Sequence record: CP025713.1 | Length of the DNA stretch: 18,617 bases | Origin: Escherichia phage YDC107_2 | Reading direction: 5' to 3' (one strand) | Part shown: positions 2,537 to 16,415 of the stretch, piece by piece | Numbering within the stretch: position 1 is the first letter of the stretch | Layout of the letters: the number at the start of each line of letters is the position of its first letter | The notes under the pieces: model-generated | Told to the model about the DNA's origin: nothing | The model's database searches: none | The model's input: the letters and a program-made list of their open reading frames with translations, nothing else | Position numbers and translations under genes: made by a program

Positions 2537-2556
2537 AACTGTATATTTATACAGTA
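2537..2556. promoter_or_regulatory. LexA (SOS) box overlapping the putative promoter of the minus-strand small ORF
   Basis: AACTGTATATTTATACAGTA matches the E. coli LexA consensus TACTGTATATATATACAGTA at 18 of 20 positions, with a perfect CTGT-N8-ACAG core at 2539-2554. It sits 20 bp upstream of the ATG at 2517, between a TTGATA -35-like and a TATTGC -10-like hexamer on the minus strand. Confidence 0.6.
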
Positions 2557-2592: not shown

Positions 2593-2609
2593 ATTACCTG
2601 AAAGGTAAT
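2593..2609. promoter_or_regulatory. operator-like palindrome, site A (ATTACCTGAAAGGTAAT)
   Basis: Perfect 17-bp dyad of the recurring TTACCT-N3-AGGTAA motif, about 100 bp upstream of the tailspike ATG and adjacent to the LexA box. A GGTAAT half-site follows at 2652-2657. Confidence 0.5.
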
Positions 2610-2710
2610 ATCTGTTCGTATTCACACCCTTCTATCCATATGTGGTTTTCAGGTAATAGAATAACCAGATATGCGGCGCAACGGGTGCTGCGACTATCTG
2701 GAGATTTAAC

Positions 2711-5685
2711 ATGACGGTCTCAACCGAAGTTGACCACAACGAATACACAGGTAACGGCGTTACGACATCATTTCCGTATACCTTTAGGGTTTTCAAGGAA
2801 TCTGATCTGGCAGTACAGGTGGTTGACCTTGACGAAAAATATCGCTGTGCTGGCTCTTGATACTGATTACACTGTCACTGGGGCTGGTGGATATAATGGC
2901 GGTAATGTAATTCTGTCGAAGGCGTTAGCTAACGGTTATCAGATTTCTATATCACGAGAGCTACCGGTTACGCAGGAAACTGATCTGCGAAATCAGGGAA
3001 AGTTTTTCGCTGAGGTGCATGAAGACGCGTTAGATAAGCTGACGATGCTGATACAGCAAGTCCGCAGTTGGTTTAGCCTGGCGCTGCGCAAACCATCATT
3101 TGTGGCAAACTATTACGATGCTTTGAATAATTACATCCGCAATTTGCGCGATCCTTCCAAGCCTCAAGATGCAGCTACAAAGAATTATGTTGATAATATT
3201 GTTAATGTGAATATTAACAGGACATTACGGGTTCCAGATAATTTTATTGAACCACTTCCTCCAGTTCATTTACTGGAAGAAACTGTCATTGGTATCGTCA
3301 ATGGTAAACCTATAGGTGTACCTGTGCCTTCTGGCAGTGCCGCAGATGTTCTTCTGCAATTATCTAGCGCAGGAGAAGGAAAAGGTGATGCATTATTTGG
3401 TGTAAGGCAGCCATTTGCCGGGCTGTAACTATAACTCAGCATGAAAACAATGCTCTTTTCTTAAATGTAAAACAATTCGGAGCAATTGGGGATGGGAAAT
3501 ATCATCCATTATCTGAGAGGTTTTCTTCAATTTCTGAAGCAAAATCCTTATATCCTTTTGTTGACTCATTATCTCAGTCAATAGACTGGGCCGCGTGGCA
3601 AGCTGCCCTTAACACAGGAAAGGTTATTTATGGTACTGATAATGCGTATGTAATAACGGATACGTTAACACCTGTTTCTGGTGGTGGGATAATTTGTCTT
3701 GGTGTGGGCAAATGGGTCTCAGGATATACTGCAACATTTGCTCCTGATATTACCACAGGGACCACATTCCTGATGTACGGGGTAGGAAATAAAAAATATA
3801 CTGTAGATTGTGTTTCTAATATGGATGTTAGTGGTGGTGTGGTTTCTAATCCATCTTCCGAAGACCCGTATACAACAACGGCACCTGCGTCATCATATGA
3901 TTTATTGGATTTTACTAACGGTGATGCTAATGGGGCTACAAGAGCCACGCTTAAACCATTCTCTGCCGCAATATTGATGCCAGAGACAGGATGTGTTCGC
4001 CTTGAGAACTTTCGTATTGTTCCATATTTCAATGGGCTGGATGGTTATAAAGACATTGCAAATACCGGTCTTGGCGATGAGTGGGATGTAGGTATTTGGT
4101 CACGTGCGTCTTTGGCAATGAATACCGCAATTTGCAGGTGGTTGGATACTGGCGCAAGACGGCACTTTTAAAAACGAACATTCCTGTATCTGGCACGCTG
4201 GCCGCTCAGGGCGAGGATGAAAACTATTATCACTGTAGATTCCAGGGATTCAAGGGTGTTTCGATCCGCGCCCATGATGTATTCCGAATTACAGCGGTAA
4301 CGTCCAGCACTATCGAAATCCCATGGTCATCAAGCCACACCTTCGAAACGTCCGGGGTTTTAAGATCGGGAGGCAGGAATTTCACTTATTCAGGATTATC
4401 CGTATCCGGTGATAAGTTAGTATTTACTGGAGTGTCTAACGCTTCTGAGGCAACAGTAGGTTCTACTATACGGCGAAATGACATAGATAACTTTGGTATG
4501 GCGGGAACGCAATTTTTCGATTGCTACATTACCAGCCTGTATCACCACACACATCTGCTTGCCACATCGCAATACCTGTCTCAGCCATTCAGCCGGCCAT
4601 CAGAGTGTATGGAGGTTTCAGGGGAACCAGTTCGCGGTGTACAGGTACATGCAGGAACCATTCAGGGATGGGATGATGTTCTTATTCATCTACATGACTG
4701 TGGAAATATGAACTTTTACAGTACATATTTCGAAAGCCAGCAAGCATATGTAACTATAAATGGTGGTAATGCTATTGGTTATGGAGCACGTATGATAGCT
4801 TCCAGGCAATCAACAAGCTCATTACCATATGCAGCAGGGAATACTCGAGTGCTTAGAATGGTCGGGTGCTCTGAAGGCAATGGCGTTGACTGGGGTCCTG
4901 TATTTAACAACTATACAGGAGGAAGATATAATTCTGGAGACGGTGTATTTAACCCCCGCGATGCATTTATAGACCATAAATCTCTTCCTGAGCAGTCAGG
5001 AGGTGAGTCAAGACTCGTATCACAAAAAGGAAATGCCAGAGTAGTATGTGGTGTTGGTAAAACTGTACTGCTTGGACCAACGTCAGGAGATTGTAATTTA
5101 CAGAGCAATACCGGAAGTTTAAATATTAGAAGTGGGATAAGAGTAAGAATCGGTCACGCTGATGGAACAGACTGGTGGTTGGCAGATGCTAATAAAATAG
5201 CTCCTGTTGATGATAATGTTAAAGCTATTGGACAGCCATCAAACAGATGCTCTGTTATCTATGCAGGAACCGGGTCAATCAATACGTCAGATGAAACTCT
5301 TAAAACAAGATATGATATTCTTAATGCAGAGCGTAATGCCGCTATTGAAATAAAGTCAGTCATCTATAAATTTAAATTTAATGACTCAATTAATCACAAA
5401 GGAATTGAGTCGTCCAGGTATCATTTTGGCGTTGGCGCTCAAACCGTAGGGGATATTCTTAGAAAGCATGGTTTAAACCCGGAGCAATATGCTTTTTGGT
5501 GTTACGATGAATGGCCTGACGTATGGGATGAAGAGGTGATAACTGAAGAGAGCACAGATCCTGATACAGGTGAGAAAATTTATTCTCAATATAAAACAGG
5601 AGATATGATTCTTGTAAAAAAAGCAGGAGGACGCTACGGAATTCGTTATGACGAATTAGCCATGTTTATATTAATGTCAATGTAA
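2711..5685 (+). CDS. tailspike / tail fibre protein: conserved N-terminal particle-binding domain, central pectate-lyase-like beta-helix, C-terminal intramolecular chaperone (S74-like) domain; split by three frameshifts
   Basis: ATG 2711 with GGAG at 2700-2703. The N-terminus MTVSTEVDHNEYTGNGVTTSFPYTFRVFKESDLAVQVVDLDE matches from memory the N-terminal domain shared by podovirus tailspikes. Segments are frame 2 (2711-2860), frame 0 (2730..3428), frame 2 (about 3389..4171, containing NALFLNVKQFGAIGDGKYHP, pectate-lyase-like) and frame 1 (4081..5685). The C-terminus …NTSDETLKTRYDILNAERNAAIE… resembles auto-cleaving chaperone domains of endosialidase-type tailspikes. The first shift is one extra A in the A-run at 2835-2839. 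Confidence 0.7.
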
Positions 5686-5697
5686 TAATAAATGCAA

Positions 5698-5730
5698 TAA
5701 CCCGAATAAAACAGCGGGGTTATTGTTATT
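5698..5730 (+). terminator. possible weak terminator after the tailspike gene
   Basis: Imperfect stem AACCCG…CGGGGTT followed by a T-rich stretch; weak. Confidence 0.3.
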
Positions 5731-6017
5731 ATAATAATGCTCTTAACTTCTTAAATGATATTTATATGCACTTGGATTATTAAATCTATATTATGCCTGT
5801 TATTTATGTGTTCTGTTATATGTTTTGCAGGCACTGTTGGCAGCATTAAAGGAAATTGTATTTATGGCGAAATAGCTGGTATCGTGTTTTTATTGTGCGT
5901 AAAAATAACAGACTGCATATATTATTGTATAAAGTTTTGGAAATGAAAACACTCAAACTTACCGCTGTGGATATGTTTTGACCATCGCGAATTGGATTGG
6001 TAATATTGGGTAACAAA

Positions 6018-6033
6018 AAACCATAAATGGTTT
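6018..6033. promoter_or_regulatory. 16-bp perfect palindrome AAACCATAAATGGTTT upstream of the lysis cassette
   Basis: Exact dyad symmetry about 35 bp upstream of the AGGAGG for the first lysis gene; candidate regulator binding site. Function is an inference. Confidence 0.3.
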
Positions 6034-6068
6034 ATCATGCGTAATGCTTTACTGTTCAGGAGGTAGTT

Positions 6069-6495
6069 ATGCATATAAACGGTGGAAAACATGTCAGCTC
6101 AACTAACCAGTGAAACTTTAAATCAGTGGCTTAGCATGAGTTCTTTGGCGGCAGTGATAGCAGGAGTTCCTCCTGAGGTTGCTTTGGGGTCTTTGGCTGG
6201 GGCGGTGATTTTTGTTACCTCTGCGGTAGAGTATCCCATTCGTCGTCGCGTGCTCTTGTCGATGCTTAGCTTTCTCTGCGGACTTCTATTCTACAAACCA
6301 GCAGCATCAATTCTTATCGGCATAGCCAGCCTGATCCCTACAATCACACAGGATTCTTTCGAGAAAGGGATTGTTTTCTCTGCCGGTGCATTTGTGTCAG
6401 CAATCGTCGCTGTGCGAATTGGGATCTGGCTCTATCACCGTTCCGATAATCCACGCGAGTTAATTCCGGGGAGAAAAGACGATGGTAACTCATGA
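6069..6495 (+). CDS. holin-like membrane protein; start ambiguous between ATG 6069 (strong RBS, out of frame) and GTG 6082 / ATG 6091
   Basis: Track ORF 6082..6495 (137 aa) has several hydrophobic helices. AGGAGG at 6058-6063 is ideally spaced for ATG 6069, which is in another frame and gives only 14 aa; an indel in GGAAAACA (6085-6092) would fuse them into an M…M dual-start pattern typical of holin/antiholin pairs. Confidence 0.5.
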
Positions 6496-6790
6496 GCTTT
6501 TTTTGCTTACCACCAATGCGGTTATTTGCGCCGGTATAGCAGTTCGAGTTGCCACATTTCGGAGAAACGGTTCTCAACACAGGCGATGGGGTGGGTGGCT
6601 TGCTTATTTCCTGATTGTTGCTGCGGCCAGCATTCCAGTTCGTGTCGCTTATGCAATCTGGTTACGCACGCCAATGGTTGTGGATTTATCTGAGGTCATT
6701 ATCAACGCTGTCATGCTTGCTGCAGTCATTAAAACGCGCGGTAACGTAGTTCAGATTTTCAAAATAACGAGGTCTAAACATGGAGATTAA
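6482..6790 (+). CDS. second small membrane protein of the lysis cassette (holin or lysis accessory, 102 aa)
   Basis: Intact track ORF with GGAG upstream; two to three hydrophobic helices; overlaps the end of the preceding gene and the start of the endolysin. Confidence 0.45.
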
Positions 6791-7409
6791 ACAATTCCAG
6801 CGAGCTGCTGGTATCAGCGAGGAACTGGCCGCTCGCTGGTTCTCGCATATAACTTCTGCGATGAAAGAGTTTGGTATCAGCAAACCAGAAGATCAGGCAA
6901 TGTTTATTGCTCAGGTCGGGCATGAGTCTGGAGGCTTCACCCGGTTGCAGGAAAATTTCAACTACAGCGTAACCGGATTGGCTAACTTCGTTCGGGCTGG
7001 GCGTCTCACTCAGGGGCAGGCTAATGCACTTGGTCGCCGTGCTGGTGAACCACCATTGCCACTCGAGCGCCAGCGCGCGATCGCAAATCTGGTGTACAGC
7101 AAACGCATGGGGAACAATGCCCCTGGTGATGGCTGGAATTACCGTGGGCGCGGGCTTATCCAGATTACCGGTTTGAATAACTATCGTGACTGCGGAAACG
7201 GTCTGAAAGTTGACCTGCTGGAGAATCCTGAACTGCTGGCGCAGGACGAATACGCGGCTCGTAGCGCGGCGTGGTTCTTTGCCAGCAAAGGATGCATGAA
7301 GTATACCGGTGATATTGCACGTGTAACTCTGATTATCAATGGTGGCCGGAACGGCATCGACGACCGGCGCGCGCGGTACGTCACTGCCAGTAAGGTGCTG
7401 GCTATATGA
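6780..7409 (+). CDS. endolysin, glycoside hydrolase family 19 (chitinase-like) type
   Basis: 209-aa intact ORF; the motifs QVGHESGGF and [16 protein letters not shown] are characteristic of GH19 phage endolysins (from memory); GAGGT RBS; start overlaps the preceding gene. Confidence 0.75.
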
Positions 7410-7888
7410 TCTGGGCATTCGTAAAAGCATATTGGAAACAACTGATTATCGTGGTGATGCTTGCTGCTCTGTTCATCGTCGGAGTGGTTGCCTGGAATAT
7501 ACACGGCAGTCGCCAGTACGATGCCGGGTATGCGCAGGCGGAAGAAGACCGCAAAGACGAAGAAGACAAAGTTCGTCAGTACTACGAACAGGAGAAAGTG
7601 ACCAATGAACGTGAAGCGCAGCAGAGAATCGACCAGGCGCGCAATGATGCTCTTGATGCTGCCGCTCGCGCTGGCAGGTTGCAGCAACAACTCTTTGCCA
7701 TCCGTGAGCAGCTCAGGCAGTATAACGCCATTGTCGGCGCTGGGACGTCAGCCGCAGACACCGGAGTTTTGCTTGCCGACGTGCTCAGCAAATCTCTCGA
7801 GAGAAACAGACAACTGGCAGAGTATGCTGACCGGGCAGCCGAAGCCGGAAGAGTCTGCGAAAAACAGTATGACACCCTGACAAGATAG
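7406..7888 (+). CDS. Rz: Rz-like inner-membrane spanin
   Basis: 160 aa with an N-terminal transmembrane helix ([18 protein letters not shown]) and a long charged coiled-coil-like periplasmic region; the ATG overlaps the endolysin stop (ATGA). Confidence 0.6.
7605..7880 (+). CDS. Rz1: Rz1-like outer-membrane lipoprotein spanin embedded in the +1 frame of Rz
   Basis: Track ORF lies wholly inside Rz in another frame; it has a signal peptide with lipobox LALAGC followed by a Pro-rich mature region (classic embedded Rz/Rz1 architecture). Confidence 0.5.
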   Translation: MNVKRSRESTRRAMMLLMLPLALAGCSNNSLPSVSSSGSITPLSALGRQPQTPEFCLPTCSANLSRETDNWQSMLTGQPKPEESAKNSMTP

Positions 7889-8061
7889 CATGGCATTTTT
7901 CATGGTACTGATTTCCGGTGACGGTATATAAAACGGTACGGTGAAAATCATGTTGCAGGAAGTTGTTATCAGTCAATTAGTTATGGTATCCGTAAATAAT
8001 TGAGTGGGAATGATTAACAGCTAACTCATAGCAAATCATTCCTATTCAGATGCCAACTCAA

Positions 8062-8092
8062 CCCTCTGTTTTTGCAGAGGGTTTTTGTTTTT
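8062..8092 (+). terminator. rho-independent terminator ending the late/lysis transcript
   Basis: Stem CCCTCTG (8062-8068) / CAGAGGG (8075-8081), 6-nt loop, followed by TTTTTGTTTTT. Confidence 0.6.
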
Positions 8093-8147
8093 ATGTATTC
8101 ATTTCTATTCACTCTACACCATATTTTTCGGCGGTACAGGTGACGGT

Positions 8148-8164
8148 ATTACCTTAAAGGTATA
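8148..8164. promoter_or_regulatory. operator-like palindrome, site B (ATTACCTTAAAGGTATA)
   Basis: TTACCT-N3-AGGTAT, one mismatch to the motif; about 42 bp upstream of the int start and flanked by the TGACGGTAT repeats. Confidence 0.45.
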
Positions 8165-8205
8165 CTCTCATACCGTCATGAAAATGGTTTCTATACGGGT
8201 GAATT

Positions 8206-9456
8206 GTGCTTACCGATACAAAATTAAAAAACCTCAAGCCGCAGGACAAACTGTACAAGGTCTCCGATCGTGACGGGCTGTATGTAGCTGTGCTTACGTC
8301 AGGCACGGTCTCATTTCGTTATGACTACCGTATCAACGGTCGCCGCGAAACACTGGTAATCGGGCAGTATGGGCGTGACGGTATCAGCCTGGCAGAAGCG
8401 CGGGAAGAACTGATTGCTGCAAAGAAGCTGCTTAAAGCAGGCCAGTCACCGGCTGCGGCTAAACGTGACGGTATCAAAAAGATTCGTGGTGCCGAAACGT
8501 TTGCGGTACATACCGACAGTTATATGAAACACGTCATCCTGGCTGAAAGTACCCGCGCAATGAAGCAGGCAGTGATCGACCGTGACATACTTCCGGTTCT
8601 TGGCAACAAAATGATGGCTGAAATTACCACATCGATGGTTCGTGATTTGTGTGACCGGATTGTCGAACGCGGTGGCCGGGCAACAGCAGTGCAGGCCAGG
8701 GAGATCATCAGCAGCGTATACCGTCACGCCAATGACCGTGGTCATGGTTTGTTTAATCCTGCGGCTGACATTAAGCCTTCGTCTATCGCCATATTTAAAC
8801 CACGAGAGCGAACACTGACACCAGAAGAAATTGGCCTGTTCTTCCGCACGTTGGATGCCATTGGTGCTATGGGCACTATGAAAATGGCTTTAAAACTGGT
8901 GCTTATCACTATGGTTCGTAAGGGCGAATTCACCAATGCAACGTGGGATGAAATAGATTTTAAAAAATGGACATGGACAATTCCTTCAGACCGCATGAAG
9001 GGAAGCCGGGCGCATGTTATTTACCTGCCTAAACAGGCTCAGGATATATTGGTCGGGTTGCAGATGTGCGCTGGTGGAAGTGAATATCTGGTTCCTGGTC
9101 GTTACAATTTCCGGAAGCCATTATCTAATGCCGCGCTGAACTCTCTGATCGACAGAACGGTGAAAATAATAAATGAAGATGGTGAGCATATTCAGGATTT
9201 CACCGTACACGATATGCGCCGTACAGCCAGTACGTTGTTGCATGAGGCTGGTTATCCTTCAGACTGGATTGAAAAGGCTCTGGCACATGAGCAGAAAGGT
9301 GTGCGCGCCGTATATAACAAAGCGGAATACGCCAGACAGCGCGCCTACATGTTGCAGCAGTGGGCCGATATGATTGATTCCTGGATTAACGGGGAGCATA
9401 CGGATCTGATTCCGTTCTCCCCGTCGAAGTTTGAGAAGTGGATGGCGGGGGAATAA
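8206..9456 (+). CDS. int: tyrosine recombinase / phage integrase, P4-like with N-terminal arm-binding domain
   Basis: 416-aa intact ORF with GTG start. The N-terminus LTDTKLKNLKPQDKLYKVSDRDGLYVAV is typical of the arm-DNA-binding domain of P4-family integrases; the C-terminal catalytic region carries the HxxR…Y pattern (…HDMRRTASTLLHEAGY…AHEQKGVRAVYNKAEY). Confidence 0.85.
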   Translation: MLTDTKLKNLKPQDKLYKVSDRDGLYVAVLTSGTVSFRYDYRINGRRETLVIGQYGRDGISLAEAREELIAAKKLLKAGQSPAAAKRDGIKKIRGAETFAVHTDSYMKHVILAESTRAMKQAVIDRDILPVLGNKMMAEITTSMVRDLCDRIVERGGRATAVQAREIISSVYRHANDRGHGLFNPAADIKPSSIAIFKPRERTLTPEEIGLFFRTLDAIGAMGTMKMALKLVLITMVRKGEFTNATWDEIDFKKWTWTIPSDRMKGSRAHVIYLPKQAQDILVGLQMCAGGSEYLVPGRYNFRKPLSNAALNSLIDRTVKIINEDGEHIQDFTVHDMRRTASTLLHEAGYPSDWIEKALAHEQKGVRAVYNKAEYARQRAYMLQQWADMIDSWINGEHTDLIPFSPSKFEKWMAGE

Positions 9457-9459
9457 CGT

Positions 9460-9654
9460 TTAATTATTCTGCTGATTTTCTTCCATCTCGGCTTCTGCTG
9501 CCAGTGATTCAATTTTATCTGTGAATATTGCTGACAGTGTTGCAAATTCAGCATCAGTGACAGCGGGAATTGGAACAAACCTGATCCCGCTGTGTGCAAG
9601 CATGTTTGCAGTTTCAAGGCATTTCCTTAAATCTGATGGTGATGCCCTGTTCAT
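9460..9654 (-). CDS. small acidic protein (64 aa) translationally coupled to the methyltransferase; function unknown
   Basis: The ATG at 9654..9652 overlaps the methyltransferase stop (ATGA); it is in frame with track ORF 9460..9774; sequence MNRASPSDLRKCLETANMLAHSGIRFVPIPAVTDAEFATLSAIFTDKIESLAAEAEMEENQQNN. No homology recognised. Confidence 0.35.
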   Translation of the reverse strand: MNRASPSDLRKCLETANMLAHSGIRFVPIPAVTDAEFATLSAIFTDKIESLAAEAEMEENQQNN

Positions 9655-10301
9655 GCTGCACGCTCCCGCCCCTGGTTGTCTGTTGGTGACAGCGGAGCAT
9701 TGCTGAATGCATTTGTTAATCTGGCAATATCCAACGCGTATCCAGGGTGTAGTTGCACTGCCGGGTCTTCGCACTGATTACCCCAAACATCGAAACCATG
9801 AGACGACTGGCGGGCGAACAGTTCAATGCGAGAAACATCGCCTAACAATTGCACAAGTTTTTCACGAACGATATCTGGTTTTCTTGAATGCTCAAGCCGC
9901 GGTGCGGTAAATGACTGAACGATCCCTGCATTAATGCGCGTAGGTAGTTTTCCCTTTACTGCAAACAGGCAATCTTCACTATTGGCGCGAGTCATGTGAC
10001 CCATACCCATAACCAGTTTATCTGGTTGTCGACTACCACATTTTATCCACGTGAATCCCTTCATGGTCATCAGACGGAATCCCCAGGCCTCAACAACTTT
10101 TAGTGCTTCGAGTGGTTGTGTTGGCACCCACCACATGGCCAACAGACAGTTTTCATCGGCCAAATCCCACACAGGAAGGCGGCAGATATCCAGCACACTC
10201 ATAACCGGATATTTAAAACCGGCACCGCGATTACCATCTGCGGCTTTGTCCCGGTATACCCAGGGTGGATCTGCATAGATTAGTGTGTATTTCTTAGTCA
10301 T
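9651..10301 (-). CDS. DNA N6-adenine methyltransferase, MT-A70 family (orphan phage methylase)
   Basis: MTKKYTLIYADPPW… carries the DPPW catalytic motif of MT-A70 / Dam-like N6-adenine methyltransferases. The likely start is the ATG at 10301 (the track extends upstream to 10313). No restriction partner is visible. Confidence 0.7.
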   Translation of the reverse strand: MTKKYTLIYADPPWVYRDKAADGNRGAGFKYPVMSVLDICRLPVWDLADENCLLAMWWVPTQPLEALKVVEAWGFRLMTMKGFTWIKCGSRQPDKLVMGMGHMTRANSEDCLFAVKGKLPTRINAGIVQSFTAPRLEHSRKPDIVREKLVQLLGDVSRIELFARQSSHGFDVWGNQCEDPAVQLHPGYALDIARLTNAFSNAPLSPTDNQGRERAA

Positions 10302-10560
10302 AAACCACCCCACAACATCCTATGCCGCTATAGTCGCCACGGCGAAGGCCGTTACCTTTTGTGATACATTGGTCCCTGCGAACCGCGATCCTTGCACGCT
10401 CAACATCACCAGAAGCAACATCCATACACTGAAGCCAAAGGTGAGCGGCAATGCGGAACTGCCCTTTTTTCTCTCTTTCAATCGCGCGTTTTTCGATCTC
10501 TATCGCCGCAGGAGTAACGGCGACAATCTTTGACGGACTGCGCATTGAAACCTTGTTCAT
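10294..10560 (-). CDS. PerC-like transcriptional activator family protein
   Basis: …KRAIEREKKGQFRIAAHLWLQCMDVASGDVERARIAVRRDQCITKG… resembles the PerC family signature (Lys-Gly…RRAA…W…RRDQC) from memory. The start is ambiguous: ATG 10560 or GTG 10593. Confidence 0.5.
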   Translation of the reverse strand: MNKVSMRSPSKIVAVTPAAIEIEKRAIEREKKGQFRIAAHLWLQCMDVASGDVERARIAVRRDQCITKGNGLRRGDYSGIGCCGVVYD

Positions 10561-10702
10561 GTGATATTTTTCAAGTCGGCTTAACTTTCTCACTTAATCC
10601 AACCCTCTCTGAAAATTAATGCCAGCAGATAAAGCCATGCTGAAACAGAGGCCAGGAATAAGTACCATCCTGACCATTTGCTCCAGTGCCTTAGCAGCAC
10701 AC

Positions 10703-10951
10703 TCATGCCGCGTTGCTCACGGGACGATATACACGTTGCTGAACAGGAGGTTTTTTACCCTGGAACTCTGCCGGGCTTGCTGCCTGACGTTCATCAAGCC
10801 AACGCTCAACTTCATCACGGTTCCATGCGCAGCGTTTATCGGTGATATACCAGCGTTTAGGAAATTCCCCTGCGCGCTCCATACGGTCGATAGTGCTCCA
10901 TGACAGTGGAACCACCGCCAGGAGTTCCTTCTTACCTAATGCACCTTTCAT
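10703..10951 (-). CDS. AlpA-family phage transcriptional regulator / excisionase-like HTH protein
   Basis: 82 aa; LLAVVPLSWSTIDRMERAGEFPKRWYITDKRCAWNRDEVERWL matches the AlpA pattern (…LSRSTIYR…G.FPKP…AW…E.WL). Confidence 0.65.
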   Translation of the reverse strand: MKGALGKKELLAVVPLSWSTIDRMERAGEFPKRWYITDKRCAWNRDEVERWLDERQAASPAEFQGKKPPVQQRVYRPVSNAA

Positions 10952-11000
10952 AAATACCTCTCTTGGTTGCAGTGCGGCGCGCGTGGCGCCGCGGTGGTGG

Positions 11001-11942
11001 TTACATAGATGTTTCGTTTAATTCTTCCCGACGAACGCTGTAAACGTCGGTGGCTTTTGCCAGCAGTTCGTCATCATCTGAAAGTTTTTGTGCAATGTAT
11101 TTGTAAGCCTTATCCAGTTCGGAGACAGTGCTGTAATTCATCGCTGCGCTGGTAAAGGCCATCAGCATTTCTTCTGGATCACGGCTGTCCGATTTACGCG
11201 TTTGCTCATCAGGCTTTTTCGCTGGTTTAGCGTTGATCAGACTGTTCATTCCCGCAGCAGTGGTCGTTTGCGGAGTAATGTCTCGCTCAACGCGCGGTGC
11301 CGTTTCCTGTAATTCGTCTGGGGTGTAGACGCCCATGATTACGTCAGGACAGTGCAGGCGAGACCAGCGTTTTGTCGCAAGGTATGCGAGTTGTTGTTTC
11401 GGATCACTGGCCCAAAGTGTGGAGTTTCTTACCTGTGCTTGAGACAGCATTAACTCAAGCACTCGAGGTTGATCCTCGCCCTTCATGGTTGCCCATACGC
11501 GAACACCGCAGCCTTCTTCGTCTTTTAGAGTCCAGCCTGGTGCGATATATGGATTGCCGTTTTTGGATGTTTTCTCAACAAACTTACCGATCACGCGTTC
11601 CCACGGCCCGAACCACTCGTAGTTGATGCGATCTTTTGTTGGCGACATCGTTGAGATAACTGCGTTTACTAATTGGGCTTCATAACCTAGCGTGCCGTTC
11701 ACAACATGGGTTTTCTGAGCCACGGCAAACGGGTTCATTCCCCACTGCGCAGCCTGCATTGCCACGGCCATGCAATCAGCTGGTTTCCCGGCGAGGTGCG
11801 CCGGTACCGTTACGCGGCTTTGCGCCATTACCTCGGCGAATTTCATCAGTTGGTTCAAGCCGTCTGGGCTGAAAATAGTTGCAGCAGTTCCAGCGATTGC
11901 TGTGTCTACTGGTGCGTTGATGTTTGCGATGTCGTTGCTCAT
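11001..11942 (-). CDS. recT: RecT-family single-strand annealing recombinase
   Basis: About 313 aa. The ATG at 11942..11940 overlaps the exonuclease stop (ATGA). The RecT assignment rests on length and pairing with the adjacent exonuclease; the family call is from memory. Confidence 0.65.
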   Translation of the reverse strand: MSNDIANINAPVDTAIAGTAATIFSPDGLNQLMKFAEVMAQSRVTVPAHLAGKPADCMAVAMQAAQWGMNPFAVAQKTHVVNGTLGYEAQLVNAVISTMSPTKDRINYEWFGPWERVIGKFVEKTSKNGNPYIAPGWTLKDEEGCGVRVWATMKGEDQPRVLELMLSQAQVRNSTLWASDPKQQLAYLATKRWSRLHCPDVIMGVYTPDELQETAPRVERDITPQTTTAAGMNSLINAKPAKKPDEQTRKSDSRDPEEMLMAFTSAAMNYSTVSELDKAYKYIAQKLSDDDELLAKATDVYSVRREELNETSM

Positions 11943-12760
11943 ATGTACATATCCTGTTTGCGTGCCCACTCAGGGCGTTTAATGATTTCCACACCGCCCC
12001 ATTCATCATTGATGCGGCATTCGTGATAGGTATTCAGATCCCGGCGGAACAGAGCGTGCCCGGCATCGACATCCTGCGCATCCAGCTCGAACACGCGTAC
12101 CGGATACCGACCACAATCAATGCTTTCGCTCACGGCAAGAAAGAAAAAACCATGCGGCTGACCAGTAACCCTCATTGCGCCTTCGCGGTACATTGCGTCC
12201 TGCACGTGGTAGCGGAATTCCTCGATGTGGCGTGCAAAACGGTCCATATCTGCAACCTTTTTCACGTCGACGATCACGTTGTGCTCGTTCAGCCATTTGT
12301 CTGGACGAATTCGGCACAACTCCCCCGTCTCTTCATCGTTCCAGTACATTGATGCTTCGCAGTAACCAGGTGCTTCCAGCATCCAGCGTGCCGCCGGGTG
12401 AGCCATTGCGCTATCACGCATCAGCTCCAGTTTCCGCCACTGCTCGGCATCAAGTACCGTAATCCCCATATCCGCCACATCACGAAGAAATTCCTCTTCG
12501 TCAGCTTTACCTTGTTTCGTCCGACGATCGAATTTCGGTGAAACAATGAAGCGTTTGTCGAACTCTCCAGGCTCCAGAAGCAGACAGTGCAATGCGGTTC
12601 CCATATCCAGTGCAGACTTTTTCTCTTCGTCTTCTGGTGCTGCCTGAACCCATTTAAGAAGCGCCGGATTCTTGGCAACCATGTCCAGTTGCGACTTACT
12701 CACGCCGTCACCGGCGTGGTAGTCTTCGTTGCTGATGTCGAAATAAATTCCCGGTTTCAT
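11939..12760 (-). CDS. RecE-like PD-(D/E)XK 5'-3' exonuclease, partner of RecT
   Basis: 273-aa intact ORF beginning MKPGIYFDISNEDYHAGDGVSKSQLD…, with …RIRPDKWLNEHNVIVDVKKV… consistent with a PD-(D/E)XK nuclease core; translationally coupled to the flanking genes. Confidence 0.6.
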   Translation of the reverse strand: MKPGIYFDISNEDYHAGDGVSKSQLDMVAKNPALLKWVQAAPEDEEKKSALDMGTALHCLLLEPGEFDKRFIVSPKFDRRTKQGKADEEEFLRDVADMGITVLDAEQWRKLELMRDSAMAHPAARWMLEAPGYCEASMYWNDEETGELCRIRPDKWLNEHNVIVDVKKVADMDRFARHIEEFRYHVQDAMYREGAMRVTGQPHGFFFLAVSESIDCGRYPVRVFELDAQDVDAGHALFRRDLNTYHECRINDEWGGVEIIKRPEWARKQDMYI

Positions 12761-13020
12761 GCCGCGTCCCTCTGCCCATCAAGCTGATCAGCCAGATCCC
12801 AGCGGGCGATAATTGCCATTGCCTCGCGCCGGTAGGCATCCATTAGTTCTTCGAACTCAGGGCTGTCTTTAGCGGCCTCCAGTACTTCCTGGCGAACGCC
12901 TTTAACTGTTACAACGTCGAAAGTTGATGCCAGTTGATGAAGCCGGATACTCTCAATCAGTTCAACTTGTCGGTCATATAGCTGTTCTGACAGACGGTAG
13001 TCCTTGTCGAATGCCAGCAT
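12757..13020 (-). CDS. hypothetical early protein (87 aa, helical), first long gene of the leftward early operon
   Basis: Intact track ORF whose stop overlaps the exonuclease start; no motif recognised. Lambda places gam/kil-type genes in this position. Confidence 0.45.
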   Translation of the reverse strand: MLAFDKDYRLSEQLYDRQVELIESIRLHQLASTFDVVTVKGVRQEVLEAAKDSPEFEELMDAYRREAMAIIARWDLADQLDGQRDAA

Positions 13021-13057
13021 GATTTTTGAAGATTTTTCTGCTGATTAACGTTCATTA

Positions 13058-13210
13058 TCAGCCCTCCCATATCTCGTTATCGTTGGCCACATCGCGAGCT
13101 TCTTTGCTGACGAAAGCCCACTTAATGCCTTCCTGTAAGGTGCGGAACTTCCAGCTCATGAATCCGCATGCAGTAACGCAGTACCAACCGTTGATGATTT
13201 TCCACTGCAT
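13058..13210 (-). CDS. small hypothetical protein (50 aa) immediately downstream of the early-left promoter
   Basis: Hand translation MQWKIINGWYCVTACGFMSWKFRTLQEGIKWAFVSKEARDVANDNEIWEG; GAGGT lies 9 nt upstream of the ATG at 13210; below the track cutoff. Confidence 0.35.
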   Translation of the reverse strand: MQWKIINGWYCVTACGFMSWKFRTLQEGIKWAFVSKEARDVANDNEIWEG

Positions 13211-13228
13211 AACTTGTTACCTCGGTCT

Positions 13229-13245
13229 GTTACCGTTGAGGTAAT
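13229..13245. promoter_or_regulatory. operator-like palindrome, site C (GTTACCGTTGAGGTAAT) at the early-left promoter
   Basis: TTACCG-N3-AGGTAA, directly abutting the -10-like element; an extra TTACC half-site lies at 13217-13221. Confidence 0.5.
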
Positions 13246-13272
13246 AATTATGCGTATATGGTTTGATGTCAA
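13246..13272 (-). promoter_or_regulatory. candidate early-left (pL-like) sigma-70 promoter
   Basis: On the minus strand a perfect TTGACA -35 (13272..13267) is followed 15-17 nt later by a CATAATT -10-like element (about 13252..13246), bracketed by operator sites D and C. Confidence 0.4.
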
Positions 13273-13290
13273 TAGATATGAGTTAAAAAA

Positions 13291-13307
13291 ATTACCCGTT
13301 AGGTAAT
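13291..13307. promoter_or_regulatory. operator-like palindrome, site D (ATTACCCGTTAGGTAAT)
   Basis: TTACCC-N3-AGGTAA, between the repressor terminator and the -35 of the early-left promoter. Confidence 0.5.
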
Positions 13308-13316
13308 CGAATAGGC

Positions 13317-13340
13317 AATAAAAAGCCGCCATAAGGCGGC
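13317..13340 (-). terminator. rho-independent terminator of the repressor gene
   Basis: GCCGCC (13325-13330), loop ATAA, GGCGGC (13335-13340); on the minus strand the stem is followed by TTTTTATT (complement of 13317-13324). Confidence 0.5.
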
Positions 13341-13362
13341 TTACTTACTGAAAAATATGGTT

Positions 13363-13948
13363 TTATTGTTTGTTTTTTTCGTTCTGGTTGATGACAAATT
13401 CAATGTAACTTTCGATCTTTGCTTTCTCGGTTTCGGGTAACAATGCGTAGCGCGAGCGATCATAGTTGATGGTCGCAGGGTCGTGCGGGTGAATCAGTAA
13501 TTCATAGCCGTGACGCCCGAATGCGGATGCAACATTCTCCAGGGTGGAAATGGAAACGCTGACCTCATTGTTTAACAGGCGGCTGATTGTCACCTGGGCG
13601 ACGCCGGATGCGCGGTGAAGTTTTCCCTGTGTTGAAAGGTCGCGGCTTTCGCTCATCCAGCGTTCCAGGTTGTGAGCCGCCAGCTGGCCAATGTCGCTTG
13701 GGCCGACAGGCTGAAAACCTTCCTGAGAAAGCGAGCGATCGATATCAAGCCAGTTACGGGGTTTATTGGCGGCAGCTTCAATTTTTCGCGCAACCTGATC
13801 GCCGATAACCTTCTTACCAAGAGCCCAGCGGTTTTACCAGATTTGCCTGAGTTCCAAGTTTTTCAGCCATCCGCGTCTGAACACCATTGAATTCACGGTC
13901 GATCAAGTCGTTGAGATTTTGCCTGCGGACGTCCTGGATACTTTTCAT
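13363..13948 (-). CDS. immunity repressor candidate: CI-like protein with two HTH-like regions and no recognisable LexA-like S24 cleavage domain; one frameshift
   Basis: Minus-strand ATG at 13948 gives MKSIQDVRRQNLNDLIDREFNGVQTRMAEKLGTQANLV… (HTH), which stops after the A-run near 13830; the next frame continues …GKKVIGDQVARKIEAAANKP… into track ORF 13363..13656 (second HTH-like …GKLHRASGVAQVTISRLLNN…). It is divergent from the Cro-like gene with operator palindromes on both sides. Confidence 0.6.
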
Positions 13949-14002
13949 TTTCTGGAAAATCGCCTCATATCTGAATCAGAAGATGATTCAATTTAAAGCA
14001 AT

Positions 14003-14019
14003 ATTACCCAACAGGTAAA
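14003..14019. promoter_or_regulatory. operator-like palindrome, site E (ATTACCCAACAGGTAAA) in the repressor/cro intergenic region
   Basis: TTACCC-N3-AGGTAA; a degenerate copy GCACCTCATGGGTAAC follows at 14021-14036. Confidence 0.5.
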
Positions 14020-14050
14020 TGCACCTCATGGGTAACTATCCTTGATTTTT

Positions 14051-14067
14051 GTTACCTTATAGGTGAA
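14051..14067. promoter_or_regulatory. operator-like palindrome, site F (GTTACCTTATAGGTGAA)
   Basis: TTACCT-N3-AGGTGA, one mismatch; about 35 bp upstream of the Cro-like ATG; a TTGATT -35-like hexamer lies at 14042-14047. Confidence 0.45.
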
Positions 14068-14102
14068 TATTTATTATCTGAAATAAATATCAGGCAATAG
14101 CT

Positions 14103-14333
14103 ATGAGCGATAACGGACATTTCGATTTCAAAAAGCACTGGCTTGCACTTACTCCGGATGAGCGTGAAGCCTTCGCACAGGAAGCCGGAACGACGAGTCA
14201 CTATATCCAGACTCACTTAACAGGTAAGCGCAAAATGCCAGGTAAGGTATTGATGAATGGGCTTTTTAAAGCCTGTAAATCAAGACAATGGCTGCGCTCA
14301 AAAGCAGAACTGGTATACTTCTTCTACTCATGA
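14103..14333 (+). CDS. Cro-like / CII-like small HTH regulator (76 aa)
   Basis: Intact track ORF divergent from the repressor; …DEREAFAQEAGTTSHYIQTHLTGKR… has a helix-turn-helix signature; followed by a terminator. Confidence 0.5.
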   Translation: MSDNGHFDFKKHWLALTPDEREAFAQEAGTTSHYIQTHLTGKRKMPGKVLMNGLFKACKSRQWLRSKAELVYFFYS

Positions 14334-14355
14334 TATCCAGCTACAACCCTCTGTA

Positions 14356-14378
14356 GACCGCCACCCGGCGGTCTTTTC
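14356..14378 (+). terminator. rho-independent terminator after the Cro-like gene
   Basis: GACCGCC (14356-14362), loop ACCC, GGCGGTC (14367-14373), then TTTTC. Confidence 0.5.
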
Positions 14379-14387
14379 ATATCTATT

Positions 14388-14404
14388 CGTACCTCAAAGG
14401 TAAT
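14388..14404. promoter_or_regulatory. operator-like palindrome, site G (CGTACCTCAAAGGTAAT)
   Basis: GTACCT-N3-AGGTAA, one mismatch; downstream of the cro terminator and upstream of the zinc-ribbon gene. Confidence 0.4.
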
Positions 14405-14483
14405 AAATAACCAAATGTGGTTGATCTTTTTTTTGTGTCAGCACAAAATGACCGTAATCCCAATACTAATAACAGGGCTTACC

Positions 14484-14683
14484 ATGGAAATCATTACACG
14501 TATTGATGCCGCAAAGCGCGGACTTAAACGCTACTACACCGGAAAACATGTAAGCACGGACATGACAGTGAACGCTGGGTTTACAACGGACACTGTGTTG
14601 AGTGCACCATGGAATCAAACCGTCGTATCAGGGCAGAGATTAAGCAGATCATGATTAATTCCTCCCCACAACATTCAAGCTGA
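14484..14683 (+). CDS. small zinc-ribbon-like protein (about 66 aa) between cro and the replication genes; one frameshift
   Basis: ATG 14484 with AGGG RBS gives MEIITRIDAAKRGLKRYYTGK…; after the A-run near 14540 the next frame reads …TCKHGHDSERWVYNGHCVECTMESNRRIRAEIKQIMINSSPQHSS, with a Cys/His cluster consistent with a zinc ribbon. Confidence 0.4.
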
Positions 14684-14698
14684 TAGCGGAGATTAATC

Positions 14699-15545
14699 AT
14701 GAGCAGACATGCAACAGATTGGGCCTGGGAGACAGATCCAGGTAGCTCGTCATTAAAGCTCATACTGCTCTCGATGGCTGACAGAGCCGAATGAATATAA
14801 CCTCTGCTACCCCAGCATAGAACGCCTCGTTAAAGACACTTGCCTGAATAAAAAAACCGTGCAGGCCGGGCTTATATCGCTCATGAAAATGGGGCTTATT
14901 TCAGAATACCGGAGAGAGAAAGGGAGCGACGAAAAGAGTGCGGGTTTTCTCTCTTAATATAACCAAAAACGGGAACATTAAAGGCAACCGGGAAGGGGTA
15001 ATGAACCGAAAGCGGTAATGTTACCGGAAAACGGGAATATACCCAAAAAACGGGATGTTGAATGATCCCAAAAAACGGGATGTTGAATGATCCCAAAAAC
15101 GGGATCCAGAACCAGTCATATAACCAGTCATTTACCAAGAGAGGGAGAGCAGGACAAAAAACGGGGATTCTGTGCATCATGACCCCGGCGCAAACAACGC
15201 CGTGATGAATAACTTTGTTCCTCCTGGTGGGCTAGGGCAATTAGGCAAATTTGTCATGCATGAACAATGGCGGCCATCAGATGATTTCTTCGGAAAAGCT
15301 CATTGCAGGGGATCTACCTGGACAGTCTGCCAACGGCACAGGAACTTGCAGAGTTCAGAATTTACTGGATGGCTGAGGGTAAGGCATACCATCAGGCACA
15401 GTGGGAGCAGAAGCTGGCAAGGCGGCTGCAGATTAGCAGACAGAAGCAATCAACATTACCTGATAACAACGTTCCGCACTGGAACAGCCCTGAAGCATGG
15501 AGGATTTCTTGTGAACAACGTTTTTACCGCGATACAAAACCGTGA
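14699..15545 (+). CDS. replication initiator (lambda O-like organisation): N-terminal HTH domain, internal origin iterons, C-terminal DnaT-like domain; reading frame broken in several places
   Basis: ATG 14699 with GGAG RBS gives MSRHATDWAWETD…; after a shift near 14775-14790 it continues …NEYNLCYPSIERLVKDTCLNKKTVQAGLISLMKMGLI… (replication-protein HTH). The iterons lie at 14963-15170. Track ORF 15303..15545 (…TAQELAEFRIYWMAEGKAYHQAQWEQKLARRLQ…) resembles the C-terminal domain of E. coli DnaT from memory. Confidence 0.5.
14963..15170. repeat. origin-of-replication iterons (AAAACGGGA-type direct repeats)
   Basis: The core ACGGGA/ACGGGG recurs six times at 14969, 15031, 15050, 15075, 15099 and 15161, including two identical tandem 25-bp copies CCCAAAAAACGGGATGTTGAATGAT (15042-15066 and 15067-15091). 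The region also holds a palindrome CGGTAATGTTACCG (15013-15026) and a direct repeat ACCAGTCAT (15111-15119, 15124-15132). Confidence 0.55.
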
Positions 15546-15564
15546 CGGAGAAGCCCTTTCTCGC

Positions 15565-16298
15565 ATGTCAGGTTATGAGCATCAGTACACCAACAATGAC
15601 AACGTAGTGAACATGTCAGCAGAGAGGCTTGTTGATGCCCTTTTCAAACAGTTGAAACACTGTTTCCGGCGGCAGTGGTAACCAACCTGAAGACGCCAGA
15701 GCAGGAAGTTGCTGCAAAACAGCAGTGGATTGCTGCGTTTGCCGAAGGGGGGATCCGAACCCGTGAACAGGTTTCTGCTGGTATGCGCCACGCCCGCGCC
15801 AGTGAATCTCCGTTCTGGCCGTCCGCCAGGGGCAATTTATCAAGTGGTGTAAAGACAGCAAGATGGTTCTTGGCGTCACCAATTGACGATGTGATGGCGG
15901 AGTTTCACCGGTACAGCAAGGAAAAAAGTTTATATCCTGGTGGTCCCGAAAGATTCCCGTGGCGGCATCCGGTTATGTACTGGGTCGTATGTGATACCCG
16001 CCGTGCAATGTATCAGCGCCAGCTTAGCGAGATTGAGGTTGAGAAACACGCGCGCAGGCCTGCTTGATGATTGGGCGAAAAAGGTGGCTTCCGGACAGCA
16101 GATACCCGATCCGGTGATCAGCATACAGGCAAAGCCAGAACCCATGAGTACGCCTCCGGACACAGGGAGAGACGTTTACCATCCACCAGGGCGAAGTTTC
16201 GGGTGTATGCCTAACGCCGCTACCCTGGGGGGAAAACACCGGCGCAGTGGCTGATGGAGGAATACAGGCGGGGAAAGGCGGCAGGATTTATCAAGTAA
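15565..16298 (+). CDS. lambda P-like replication protein (DnaB helicase loader); three frameshifts
   Basis: Track ORF 15675..16067 contains …QQWIAAFAEGGIRTREQVSAGMRHARASESPFWPSARG…SLYPGGPERFPWRHPVMYWVV…, which aligns with lambda P (…RRQWVLAFRENGITTMEQVNAGMRVARRQNRPFLPSPGQ…GLYPDAESYPWKSNAHYWLV…) from memory. The N-terminus is in frame 1 from ATG 15565; the C-terminus continues in ORF 15940..16254 and shifts again at GGGGGGAAAA (about 16228) to end …GKTPAQWLMEEYRRGKAAGFIK at TAA 16296-16298. Confidence 0.6.
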
Positions 16299-16335
16299 TA
16301 CCAGCGCGATAGCGCATTTTTTTTACGTCTCAATA

Positions 16336-16352
16336 ATTACCTATCAGGTAAC
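16336..16352. promoter_or_regulatory. operator-like palindrome, site H (ATTACCTATCAGGTAAC)
   Basis: TTACCT-N3-AGGTAA, in the intergenic region after the P-like gene. Confidence 0.45.
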
Positions 16353-16398
16353 AAAGCATTCTAAACTCTATTGATTTCGTGTCTTATGTGGTTTTTTA

Positions 16399-16415
16399 AT
16401 TACCTTAGAGGTAAA
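16399..16415. promoter_or_regulatory. operator-like palindrome, site I (ATTACCTTAGAGGTAAA), overlapping the RBS of the next gene
   Basis: TTACCT-N3-AGGTAA ending 3 nt before the ATG at 16418; the AGGT half doubles as the Shine-Dalgarno sequence. Confidence 0.45.

Follow-up and report, generated by a model that had tools for sequence, protein, structure and literature searches.

What reads a 17-bp palindrome that recurs between the genes of a phage, and does one protein reach all of its copies? The question is raised by an 18,617-nucleotide stretch of Escherichia phage YDC107_2 (sequence record CP025713.1; this whole stretch is called the window below), in which an earlier note had reported nine near-identical dyads of the form TTACCT-N3-AGGTAA and had taken them for operators of the adjacent repressor, reaching late, integration and replication promoters as well. 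The window comes from a phiV10-like Uetakevirus (the epsilon15 group of temperate podophages) and is 95-98% identical to phiV10, PAS61, phiv142-3 and ZX5 over the regions that these have in common with it. We conclude that the dyads are very probably the operators of the lysogeny repressor Rep (phiV10 gp40/SPC32H Rep family) and that they stand at nearly every promoter. The scattered-operator reading is right but not new; the operator network is already known at the level of the genus, with operators annotated in epsilon15 and with Rep, Ant and LexA studied in SPC32H. The Uetakevirus switch made of Rep, its operators, Ant and LexA was reportedly described by Kropinski et al. in 2007 for epsilon15, and by Kim and Ryu in 2013 and Kim et al. 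in 2016 for SPC32H.

A pattern search recovered all nine dyads exactly where the earlier note had placed them (Table 1), and mapping of the window by homology onto the phiV10 genes bore out that all nine are intergenic. The string TTACCTNNNAGGTAA with at most two mismatches has 12 matches in the window against 0.55 expected, a count reached by none of 200 shuffles that preserve dinucleotides. In a symmetrised weight matrix built from the nine sites, these score 18.3-24.6 bits (15.0-23.7 bits in leave-one-out scoring) and the next best position of the window scores 12.5 bits, a gap that makes the nine a discrete set. The recurrence is therefore real, and AGGTAA is indeed intact in seven of the nine sites, but the conserved unit is not quite the one proposed: when 63 distinct sites from six genomes are pooled, the information content is 1.4-2.0 bits at positions 2-6 and 12-16 and 0.1-0.8 bits at the five positions of the centre, so that the unit is better written ATTACC-N5-GGTAAT, with T7 and A11 as mere preferences of this phage. 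Counting a weak copy (E'), the window holds ten sites in six intergenic regions, and the complete phiV10 genome holds 13-15. In phiV10, 12 of the 13 sites of at least 15 bits lie in the intergenic 6.5% of the genome (binomial P = 7e-14), the thirteenth lying just before the probable true start of terS (as suggested by the annotations of epsilon15, Tyrion and ZX5). Per kb there are about 4.7 sites in intergenic phage DNA, about 0.03 in coding phage DNA and 0.04 in a 50-kb sample of E. coli K-12 (2 sites of at least 15 bits there, and all four loose matches in coding DNA); the concentration between genes that the earlier note had expected thus amounts to about 170-fold relative to coding phage DNA.

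Table 1. Operators, promoters, genes and other features of the window (positions counted from its first letter).
Feature	Position	Strand	Sequence	Context and score
Operator A	2593..2609		ATTACCTGAAAGGTAAT	between the divergent ant-like gene and tailspike gene; perfect match, 24.6 bits
Site B	8148..8164		ATTACCTTAAAGGTATA	42 bp upstream of int; 20.6 bits (18.2 leave-one-out)
Operator C (OL1-like)	13229..13245		GTTACCGTTGAGGTAAT	begins inside the -10 hexamer of the leftward early promoter and covers its start site
Operator D (OL2-like)	13291..13307		ATTACCCGTTAGGTAAT	upstream of the -35 of the leftward promoter, 62 bp from C; perfect match
Operator E	14003..14019		ATTACCCAACAGGTAAA	rep-cro gap, over the likely rep promoter; 20.5 bits; equals SPC32H 34389, epsilon15 33340
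Operator E' (weak)	14020..14036		TGCACCTCATGGGTAAC	abuts E; 11.8 bits; tenth copy, overlooked in the earlier note
Operator F	14051..14067		GTTACCTTATAGGTGAA	overlaps the -35 and spacer of the rightward early promoter; 18.3 bits
Operator G	14388..14404		CGTACCTCAAAGGTAAT	just past the terminator after the cro-position gene, upstream of the p42/replication module; 18.5 bits
Operator H	16336..16352		ATTACCTATCAGGTAAC	about 62 bp upstream of the DUF1064-module start site; 22.7 bits; epsilon15 35906-35922 annotated as repressor binding
Operator I	16399..16415		ATTACCTTAGAGGTAAA	overlaps the -10, start site and Shine-Dalgarno of the DUF1064 gene; 63 bp from H; 23.0 bits
Leftward early promoter (PL-like)	13272..13244	minus	TTGACA-17-AATTAT	consensus scan, 10/12
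Rightward early promoter	14049-14077		TTGTTA-17-TATTAT	consensus scan
DUF1064-module promoter	16371-16376 and 16395-16400		TTGATT-18-TTTAAT	putative, read from the sequence
rep	13363..13948	minus		homologue of phiV10 gp40 and SPC32H Rep; +1 frameshift at codon 38
cro-position gene	14103..14333	plus		76 aa; 97% identical to phiV10 p41 (gp41 homologue)
ant-like antirepressor gene	2267..2517	minus		matches phiV10 p24 in two frames; frameshifted
LexA (SOS) box	2537..2556		AACTGTATATTTATACAGTA	20 bp upstream of the ant ATG; one mismatch to the 20-nt pattern; 0.01 expected
Integrase-type repeat copies	7918-7927, 8140-8149, 8170-8179 (-), 8375-8384, 8465-8474, 8718-8727 (-)		GTGACGGTAT	
Second motif	2259-2271			
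Second motif	2636..2648	plus	CCATATGTGGTTT	43 bp downstream of operator A; then AGGTAAT half-site and TAGAAT; same in phiV10, SPC32H
Second motif	6021..6033	plus		upstream of the lysis cassette, no Rep operator there (unlike phiV10, with oac)
Second motif	13252..13264	plus		inside the leftward-promoter spacer
Second motif	14411..14423	plus		23 bp downstream of operator G
Second motif	16382..16394	plus		spacer of the DUF1064-module promoter, between H and I
Frame-changed regions	1-1734, 2267-2517, 2711-3368, 13363-13948, 14484-14680, 14699-16295, 16418-16760			p20, ant-like p24, tail fibre N-terminus, rep, p42, p43, p44, DUF1064

The annotation of epsilon15 already names a ligand for these sites. 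Its RefSeq record carries seven features labelled "protein_bind, repressor, lysogeny" (12-27, 2931-2947, 19895-19911, 32479-32494, 32554-32570, 32616-32632 and 35906-35922), which are perfect copies of the motif (ATTACCATTTTGGTAAT and relatives) upstream of terS, gp3, the tail fibre gene, the leftward operon and the resolvase gene. The tailspike site, the pair at the leftward promoter and the DUF1064 site of the window occupy the positions of epsilon15 19895, 32554/32616 and 35906, operator A being orthologous to 19895-19911 and also to a site at 20012 in SPC32H. A search for a consensus string, ATTACCWDWWNGGTAAT, found nothing.

The motif is enriched in the relatives as well. With up to two mismatches, ATTACC-N5-GGTAAT exceeds expectation 12- to 20-fold in epsilon15 (18 matches against 0.9), Tyrion (16 against 1.1), Klebsiella phage BUCT711 (14 against 0.7) and ZX5 (15 against 1.2), no shuffle equalling the observed count, and it is also spread throughout SPC32H and phiV10 (the loci L003, L004, L006 and L007 were scanned by pattern search, not by weight matrix). 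Much of this distribution is shared. In phiV10, ZX5, Tyrion, epsilon15, SPC32H and BUCT711, operators lie upstream of terS (a pair 18 bp apart), the portal operon and the tailspike gene; upstream of the lysis cassette they occur in phiV10, Tyrion, epsilon15 and SPC32H, and upstream of int in these four and in ZX5 and BUCT711; further common contexts are a pair at the leftward promoter, a triple between rep and the gene in cro position, a single site after the post-cro terminator, and a pair upstream of the DUF1064 or resolvase gene. The single site, operator G, is kept in phiV10, ZX5 and Tyrion and is weaker in SPC32H and epsilon15. Among orthologous copies the centre varies freely and the half-sites are fixed, e.g., at site H, which reads ATTACCTATCAGGTAAC in the window, GTTACCTAATGGGTAAC in phiV10, ATTACCTGTTAGGTAAC in ZX5, ATTACCCAGTGGGTAAT in Tyrion and ATTACCAAAAGGGTAAT in epsilon15. 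Operators flank every Rep homologue examined, in nine independent loci of five genera with similar architecture. Within phiV10, the region 20470-20530 shows an operator downstream of ant (TTTACCTTTGCGGTAAA at 20496) that forms part of a more extended, perfect inverted repeat (GGAGTGCTTATAT...ATATAAGCACTCC); this part of phiV10, with its gene for a Bro-N antirepressor, is missing from the window.

The repressor gene that the earlier note had placed at 13363..13948 encodes a Rep homologue, but its 586 nt hold no open frame in the window owing to a +1 frameshift. The restored product matches SPC32H Rep (PDB 5D50) over its full length (E = 4e-42; 42% identity overall). Pfam places a YdaS/Cro-like helix-turn-helix (HTH) at residues 21-61 and an HTH_3 domain at residues 106-147; as a homologue of 5D50, the protein would have an N-terminal HTH, a middle HTH_3-like dimerisation domain and a C-terminal tetramerisation domain. 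At E <= 0.01, Pfam detected no peptidase domain in it (HTH-type families only); with no S24 peptidase domain, it should not be subject to RecA-stimulated cleavage. Residues N36, R40 and W41 of the recognition helix are invariant, the helix reading N-[LV]-[VI]-[NS]-R-W in all 14 aligned Rep sequences, and the N-terminal 70 residues are 54-56% identical among the E. coli, Klebsiella and Salmonella types against 39-43% for the rest of the protein. Invariant helix residues and a better-conserved N-terminus fit an invariant half-site. According to a secondary source (NAR 2022, PMC9638917), the SPC32H Rep tetramer binds palindromic DNA with paired DNA-binding domains that come from different dimers, and in a second paper (PMC9986798) Rep is described as an N-terminal DNA-binding, a middle dimerisation and a C-terminal p53-like tetramerisation domain, the latter of the type that loops DNA in pLS20 Rco. 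According to secondary sources, SPC32H is the sole phage in which binding by Rep is reported to have been tested. Taken together, enrichment, conservation, the epsilon15 annotation and the full-length homology to SPC32H Rep support the claim of the earlier note that the dyads next to the repressor gene are immunity operators.

Several points weigh against assigning all of these sites to Rep. That the Rep of this phage binds them we infer by orthology; the motif is unchanged in all sampled Rep homologues, a pattern that a co-inherited protein (e.g., the cro-position protein) would give equally; site B is interwoven with arm-type repeats of the integrase; the centres of operators A and G, and of the lysis and portal operators of phiV10, are about 60-80 bp upstream of the likely starts, a placement at odds with simple occlusion; and rep and ant are both frameshifted in the given sequence, so that the circuit would be nonfunctional here unless these are sequencing errors.

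The second of these points is the strength of a reading in which the sites are bound mainly by some other factor inherited with Rep, be it the 76-residue cro-position protein, the conserved late regulator phiV10 p55 or the host protein MqsA. The motif is invariant across Reps of 41-100% identity, and the link to Rep comes from orthology and literature, not from covariation. We collected Rep homologues down to 52% identity, found the helix variants NLVSRW, NLISRW and NVISRW, and opened three divergent loci (a Serratia prophage, an E. coli prophage and a metagenome contig) whose Reps are 53-59% identical with variant recognition helices; the operator was unchanged in three of the three, i.e., helix and operator co-occur but do not covary, and a search of the same three loci for alternative palindromes returned no recurring inverted repeat. 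In lambdoid phages, moreover, Cro shares the operators of CI. The cro-position protein, however, matched no Pfam family, HTH families included; in the epsilon15 record it is the repressor to which the sites are ascribed; SPC32H Rep is reported to bind palindromic DNA; and the invariance of N36, R40 and W41 matches that of the half-site. As for MqsA, six of the nine operators, namely A, B, F, G, H and I, contain ACCT-N3-AGGT, and the MqsA palindrome is given as AACCT-N3-AGGTT in PMC4894380. The flank of the half-site differs, though, being AACCT there and TACCT here (six of the nine window sites read TACCT-N3-AGGTA), and MqsA cannot explain the family, because ACCT and AGGT are often missing altogether from operators in the Salmonella and Klebsiella phages (e.g., ATTACCATTTTGGTAAT). 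Cross-talk with MqsA is unlikely, and a different main ligand altogether we regard as very unlikely.

The dyads could also act as RNA hairpins, sequestering the Shine-Dalgarno sequence at site I and serving as processing or pause signals elsewhere, rather than as DNA bound by a protein. The earlier note had offered the first half of this idea as its alternative, and the overlap on which it was built is real: the GAGGT of the ribosome-binding site that serves the ATG at 16418 falls within site I. All dyads are able to fold into a stem of 5-8 bp with a loop of 3-5 nt, and of seven tested three fold significantly better than their shuffles (A and H with z = -3.4 to -3.9, D with z = -2.4). The stems are nevertheless weak (-3.3 to -6.4 kcal/mol), D and H lie upstream of the -35 and would not be transcribed from the promoter that they accompany, and the pattern of substitution is not that of a paired RNA: among 66 arm-pair departures in the 63 sites, 57 are one-sided, six are two-sided and non-complementary and only three are compensatory, and bases that could pair with each other stand at positions 7 and 11 in no more than 22 of the 63 sites. 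Since departures are mostly one-sided and compensatory ones rare, selection acts on the identity of the half-site and not on pairing. On fold energy and substitution pattern we reject the Shine-Dalgarno-sequestering hairpin, and hairpins as a general account of the dyads are extremely improbable.

If the dyads are operators of Rep, they should accompany promoters, and the layout of the window can be read in this way. The window runs from a virion structural gene through the ant-like gene (minus strand), the tailspike gene, the lysis cassette, attP and int to the leftward early operon (dam, PerC-like, AlpA-like and RecT/RecE genes), rep (minus), the cro-position gene (plus), replication genes, the DUF1064 gene and accessory genes. 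Terminators precede operators by 15-65 bp (13323-13342 before D, 14355-14374 before G, 8060-8083 before B, and another before H). A scan for sigma-70 consensus promoters gave 27 matches in the window against 28.7 in shuffles, and because there is no excess, only the two that coincide with operators, the leftward and rightward early promoters, are used here; the promoters of tailspike, int and the site-G module were read by eye and are uncertain. The leftward promoter 'ctcatatctaTTGACA...TAATTATTACC' is kept in the E. coli prophage L010 and in the Klebsiella phage, in which the DUF1064-module promoter is also clearer (TTGATA-17-ATAAAT); operator I stands in the same register to its promoter as operator C.

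We propose that the genome is organised as transcription modules, each beginning just after a terminator and each with its own Rep-controlled promoter, so that one repressor would silence the left-early, right-early, replication, DUF1064/late-right and tailspike units and probably int, and beyond the window the terminase, portal and lysis units. The N-terminal HTH of Rep (N36, R40 and W41) would recognise the half-site TTACC, with two N-terminal domains on each ATTACC-N5-GGTAAT palindrome. The claim that the operators reach late, integration and replication promoters is in this respect supported, although its integration part is clouded by the repeats around site B.

Operator spacing may say more about how such silencing could work. 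Pairs of operators 62-63 bp apart (about six helical turns) occur at the leftward and DUF1064 promoters in nearly all genomes checked and in four of the five genera sampled; the leftward pair is spaced by 62 bp in phiV10, ZX5, Tyrion, epsilon15, SPC32H, L010 and L011 (the two last being among the three divergent loci), by 63 bp in BUCT711 and by 75 bp in the Serratia locus L009. As a Rep tetramer has two pairs of DNA-binding domains, one tetramer might hold both operators and thereby close a small loop around the core promoter. The operators that separate rep from the cro-position gene are spaced by 17 and 31 bp in the window and by 30-31 and 17 bp in the three divergent loci, which have further pairs at module boundaries. 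E' is the counterpart of the middle one of the three rep-cro operators in SPC32H and epsilon15, its 17-bp distance from E recurring in SPC32H (34389/34406), L009, L010 and L011. The triple would cover both the rightward and the rep promoters, giving repression together with autoregulation, the latter implied by E and E' covering the region where the rep promoter must lie. The motif itself, its enrichment, placement and conservation, the homologies of the proteins and the LexA box are direct results of the analysis; the looping, as well as the mode of action at sites that lie off the core promoters, we infer from the arrangement, and binding by a tetramer is taken over from the SPC32H literature.

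At the late promoters the arrangement is a different one. The only full operator of the tailspike promoter is centred about 67 bp upstream of the likely start, and a lone AGGTAAT half-site at 2651-2657 overlaps its -10-like TAGAAT (2657-2662), which is kept in phiV10 and SPC32H. The late promoters in general (tailspike here; portal and lysis in relatives) have just an upstream operator, at about -67 to -82, and a lone GGTAAT half-site lies on the -10 at the tailspike and portal promoters. At the tailspike gene and at site G the full operator stands too far upstream of the likely core promoter for simple occlusion to explain repression, and the geometry suggests another, loop-dependent or anti-activation mode.

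The lysis cassette offers a natural comparison. The weight-matrix scan found no Rep operator upstream of it in the window. In phiV10, epsilon15, SPC32H and Tyrion a lysis operator is present and a gene of opposite orientation separates the tail fibre and lysis genes, and ZX5 resembles the window in having neither a match before the lysis genes nor an intervening gene in its record. The lack of a lysis operator in the window is thus accounted for by the absence of oac, and that this operator comes and goes with the oppositely oriented gene supports the view that operators accompany promoters. The gene found at this position in phiV10, epsilon15, SPC32H and Tyrion is a serotype-conversion gene (oac in phiV10). 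The tailspike-lysis gap of the window includes an AT-rich stretch of 400 bp (5690-6090) with a promoter-like TTGACC-17-TAATAT (5978-6006) and no Rep operator.

Site B calls for a separate caution. The repeat GTGACGGTAT occurs six times around attP and in the 5' part of int against 0.73 expected, and repeats of this type are annotated as integrase-binding in epsilon15; one copy (8140-8149) overlaps the left edge of site B and an inverted copy (8170-8179) follows it. The right half of the site reads GGTATA instead of GGTAAT in phiV10, ZX5, Tyrion, epsilon15, SPC32H and BUCT711, which is closer to the integrase repeat, and the annotators of epsilon15 gave its counterpart no repressor label. Site B might accordingly belong to the arm-type array of attP and owe its palindromic look to the GGTAT of the repeats. 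Its left half is, however, a perfect ATTACC that the repeat leaves unexplained, and it scores 18.2 bits when left out of the matrix; the epsilon15 annotators labelled perfect copies only and also skipped obvious rep-cro sites; and a Rep-controlled int promoter after the lysis terminator would suit the modular layout. We regard an integrase site in place of a Rep operator as possible though on balance unlikely; site B may be an operator, an Int site, or both. The attP core ATTGAGTGGGAATGATT at 7999-8015 is intact, from which it follows that the window derives from a non-integrated phage genome.

How the lysogenic state would be left is indicated by the gene next to operator A. The ant-like gene corresponds to phiV10 p24, which is 88% identical to SPC32H Ant, and the LexA box before it is the SOS input of the switch. 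In the SPC32H studies of 2013 and 2016 (Kim and Ryu; Kim et al.), Rep reportedly remains uncleaved during the SOS response, and LexA is reported to keep ant repressed from a box overlapping the ant promoter. Induction would then proceed without RecA cleavage: DNA damage would remove LexA from the ant box, and Ant would dismantle the Rep tetramer. This action of Ant is transferred from SPC32H, for which PMC9638917 describes an Ant tetramer dismantling the Rep tetramer. The conservation of Ant (88%) is far above that of the C-terminal part of Rep (39%) to which Ant reportedly binds, which is puzzling.

In the given sequence neither of the two genes is intact. Relative to the phiV10 proteins, frame changes affect p20, p24 (ant), p25, p40 (rep), p42, p43, p44 and p45. 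In rep the change is one extra A in an A run at codon 38, near 13835 (GGTAAAACC vs GGTAAACC), and when this A is deleted the product is 100% identical to phiV10 gp40. The frameshifted allele was found in none of 540 E. coli records and none of 16 phage records with this gene segment (the best matches agree at 90 of 91 bases). A sequencing error is the likelier cause of the rep frameshift, because at least seven other genes are frameshifted and the allele is in none of these 556 related records, and the frameshifts of the window are probably errors rather than marks of real pseudogenes. A biological origin of the rep frameshift (a clear-plaque or virulent variant) was considered and is disfavoured by the same two observations; if the frameshifts were real, repressor and antirepressor would both be non-functional in this genome. 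Of 5,426 complete E. coli genomes, 537 contain the rep segment of this phage type, and phiV10-like prophages with this operator system are therefore common residents of E. coli.

A second motif accompanies several of the operators. It reads CCATATRTGGTTT or CCATAT(A/G)TGGTTT, lies within the quasi-palindrome AACCATATATGGTT and, with at most two mismatches, has 9 matches in the window against 1.04 expected, a number that none of 200 shuffles reaches. Its offsets downstream of the operators are fixed: +23 for the leftward promoter and site G, +43 to +47 for the tailspike, DUF1064 and phiV10 lysis promoters, and +56 for the portal promoters of phiV10, SPC32H and Tyrion. In the two well-defined promoters it fills the -35/-10 spacer, and at late-type promoters it sits where the -35 would be expected. 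Its enrichment is significant in Tyrion and epsilon15; the motif is also present in SPC32H and phiV10, whereas the Klebsiella phage has it in degenerate form and the leftward promoter of L010 lacks it. We found no annotation of it in the epsilon15 record or elsewhere that we looked, and neither this motif nor the 62-63 bp pairing of operators appears to be annotated, or described in the literature accessible to us. A second regulator might bind the motif, or the HTH_3-like domain of Rep might, and so turn early promoters off and late promoters on. Since the operator is invariant across Reps down to 41% identity and Ant is 88% conserved, immunity specificity in the genus may not lie in operator recognition. 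That all of these hold together, i.e., pairs bridged by one tetramer, late promoters under a loop-dependent or anti-activation control, a second motif read by a second regulator or by the HTH_3 domain, and immunity specificity placed outside operator recognition, is a tentative and rather doubtful proposal.

Set beside known systems, the window agrees with epsilon15 and SPC32H in its 17-bp ATTACC-N5-GGTAAT sites, their intergenic positions, the gene order, an orthologous Rep, an Ant of 88% identity and the LexA box, and differs from them in a Rep of 42% identity, the T7/A11 preference, a weak middle rep-cro operator, the missing lysis operator and the frameshifts in rep and ant. The earlier note had likened the network to that of P1 C1. 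In P1, C1 acts at more than ten dispersed operators over unlinked operons, and induction proceeds by antirepressors and not by cleavage of the repressor; the logic of the network (many operators, unlinked operons, antirepressor induction) is the same. The likeness thus holds for the layout but not for the family: in P1 the operators are 17 bp long, asymmetric and occupied by monomers of C1, which does not belong to the XRE-type HTH proteins, whereas the sites here are palindromes, presumably bound by pairs of HTH domains from a tetramer, the structural and family matches of Rep are XRE-type HTH proteins only, and the two repressors share no homology. The stoperators of mycobacteriophage L5 gp71 likewise lie outside the immunity region in the short intergenic spaces of early and late operons, but they are asymmetric, oriented with transcription and block elongation, whereas the sites of the window are symmetric and go with promoters just after terminators. 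As in lambda, three operators (14003, 14020 and 14051) separate the divergent rep and cro-position genes and a second set lies at the leftward promoter, and cooperative or looping binding of the lambda kind is likely; unlike CI, Rep has no S24 peptidase domain and has a p53-like tetramerisation domain, and its operators extend to late, integration and replication modules. The antirepressors of 186 (Tum), Gifsy and Fels-2 are likewise small LexA-repressed proteins that inactivate a non-cleavable repressor, but the antirepressor and repressor families differ, and those phages have neither this operator nor its genome-wide spread. Finally, PMC9986798 presents pLS20 Rco as a protein with an N-terminal HTH and a p53-like tetramerisation domain that loops the DNA between operators separated by 75 bp and whose repression a partner protein relieves; its sites are direct repeats of CAGTGAAA in a single promoter region, and Rep differs in an extra middle dimerisation domain.

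The analysis confirms that a real regulatory network can be recovered by reading sequence alone. The records of phiV10-type phages and related prophages carry no annotated operator features, and a matrix for ATTACC-N5-GGTAAT would mark promoters and transcription modules throughout these genomes. The repression mechanism of Rep-type proteins is called "not extensively characterized" in a 2023 paper (PMC9986798). What remains of interest is how a tetrameric repressor with a p53-like domain silences a dozen promoters, a question for which the operator pairs and the second motif provide testable handles. The pairing of operators, the geometry of the late promoters, the second motif and the constancy of the operator across divergent Reps are modest leads for specialists of this phage group.

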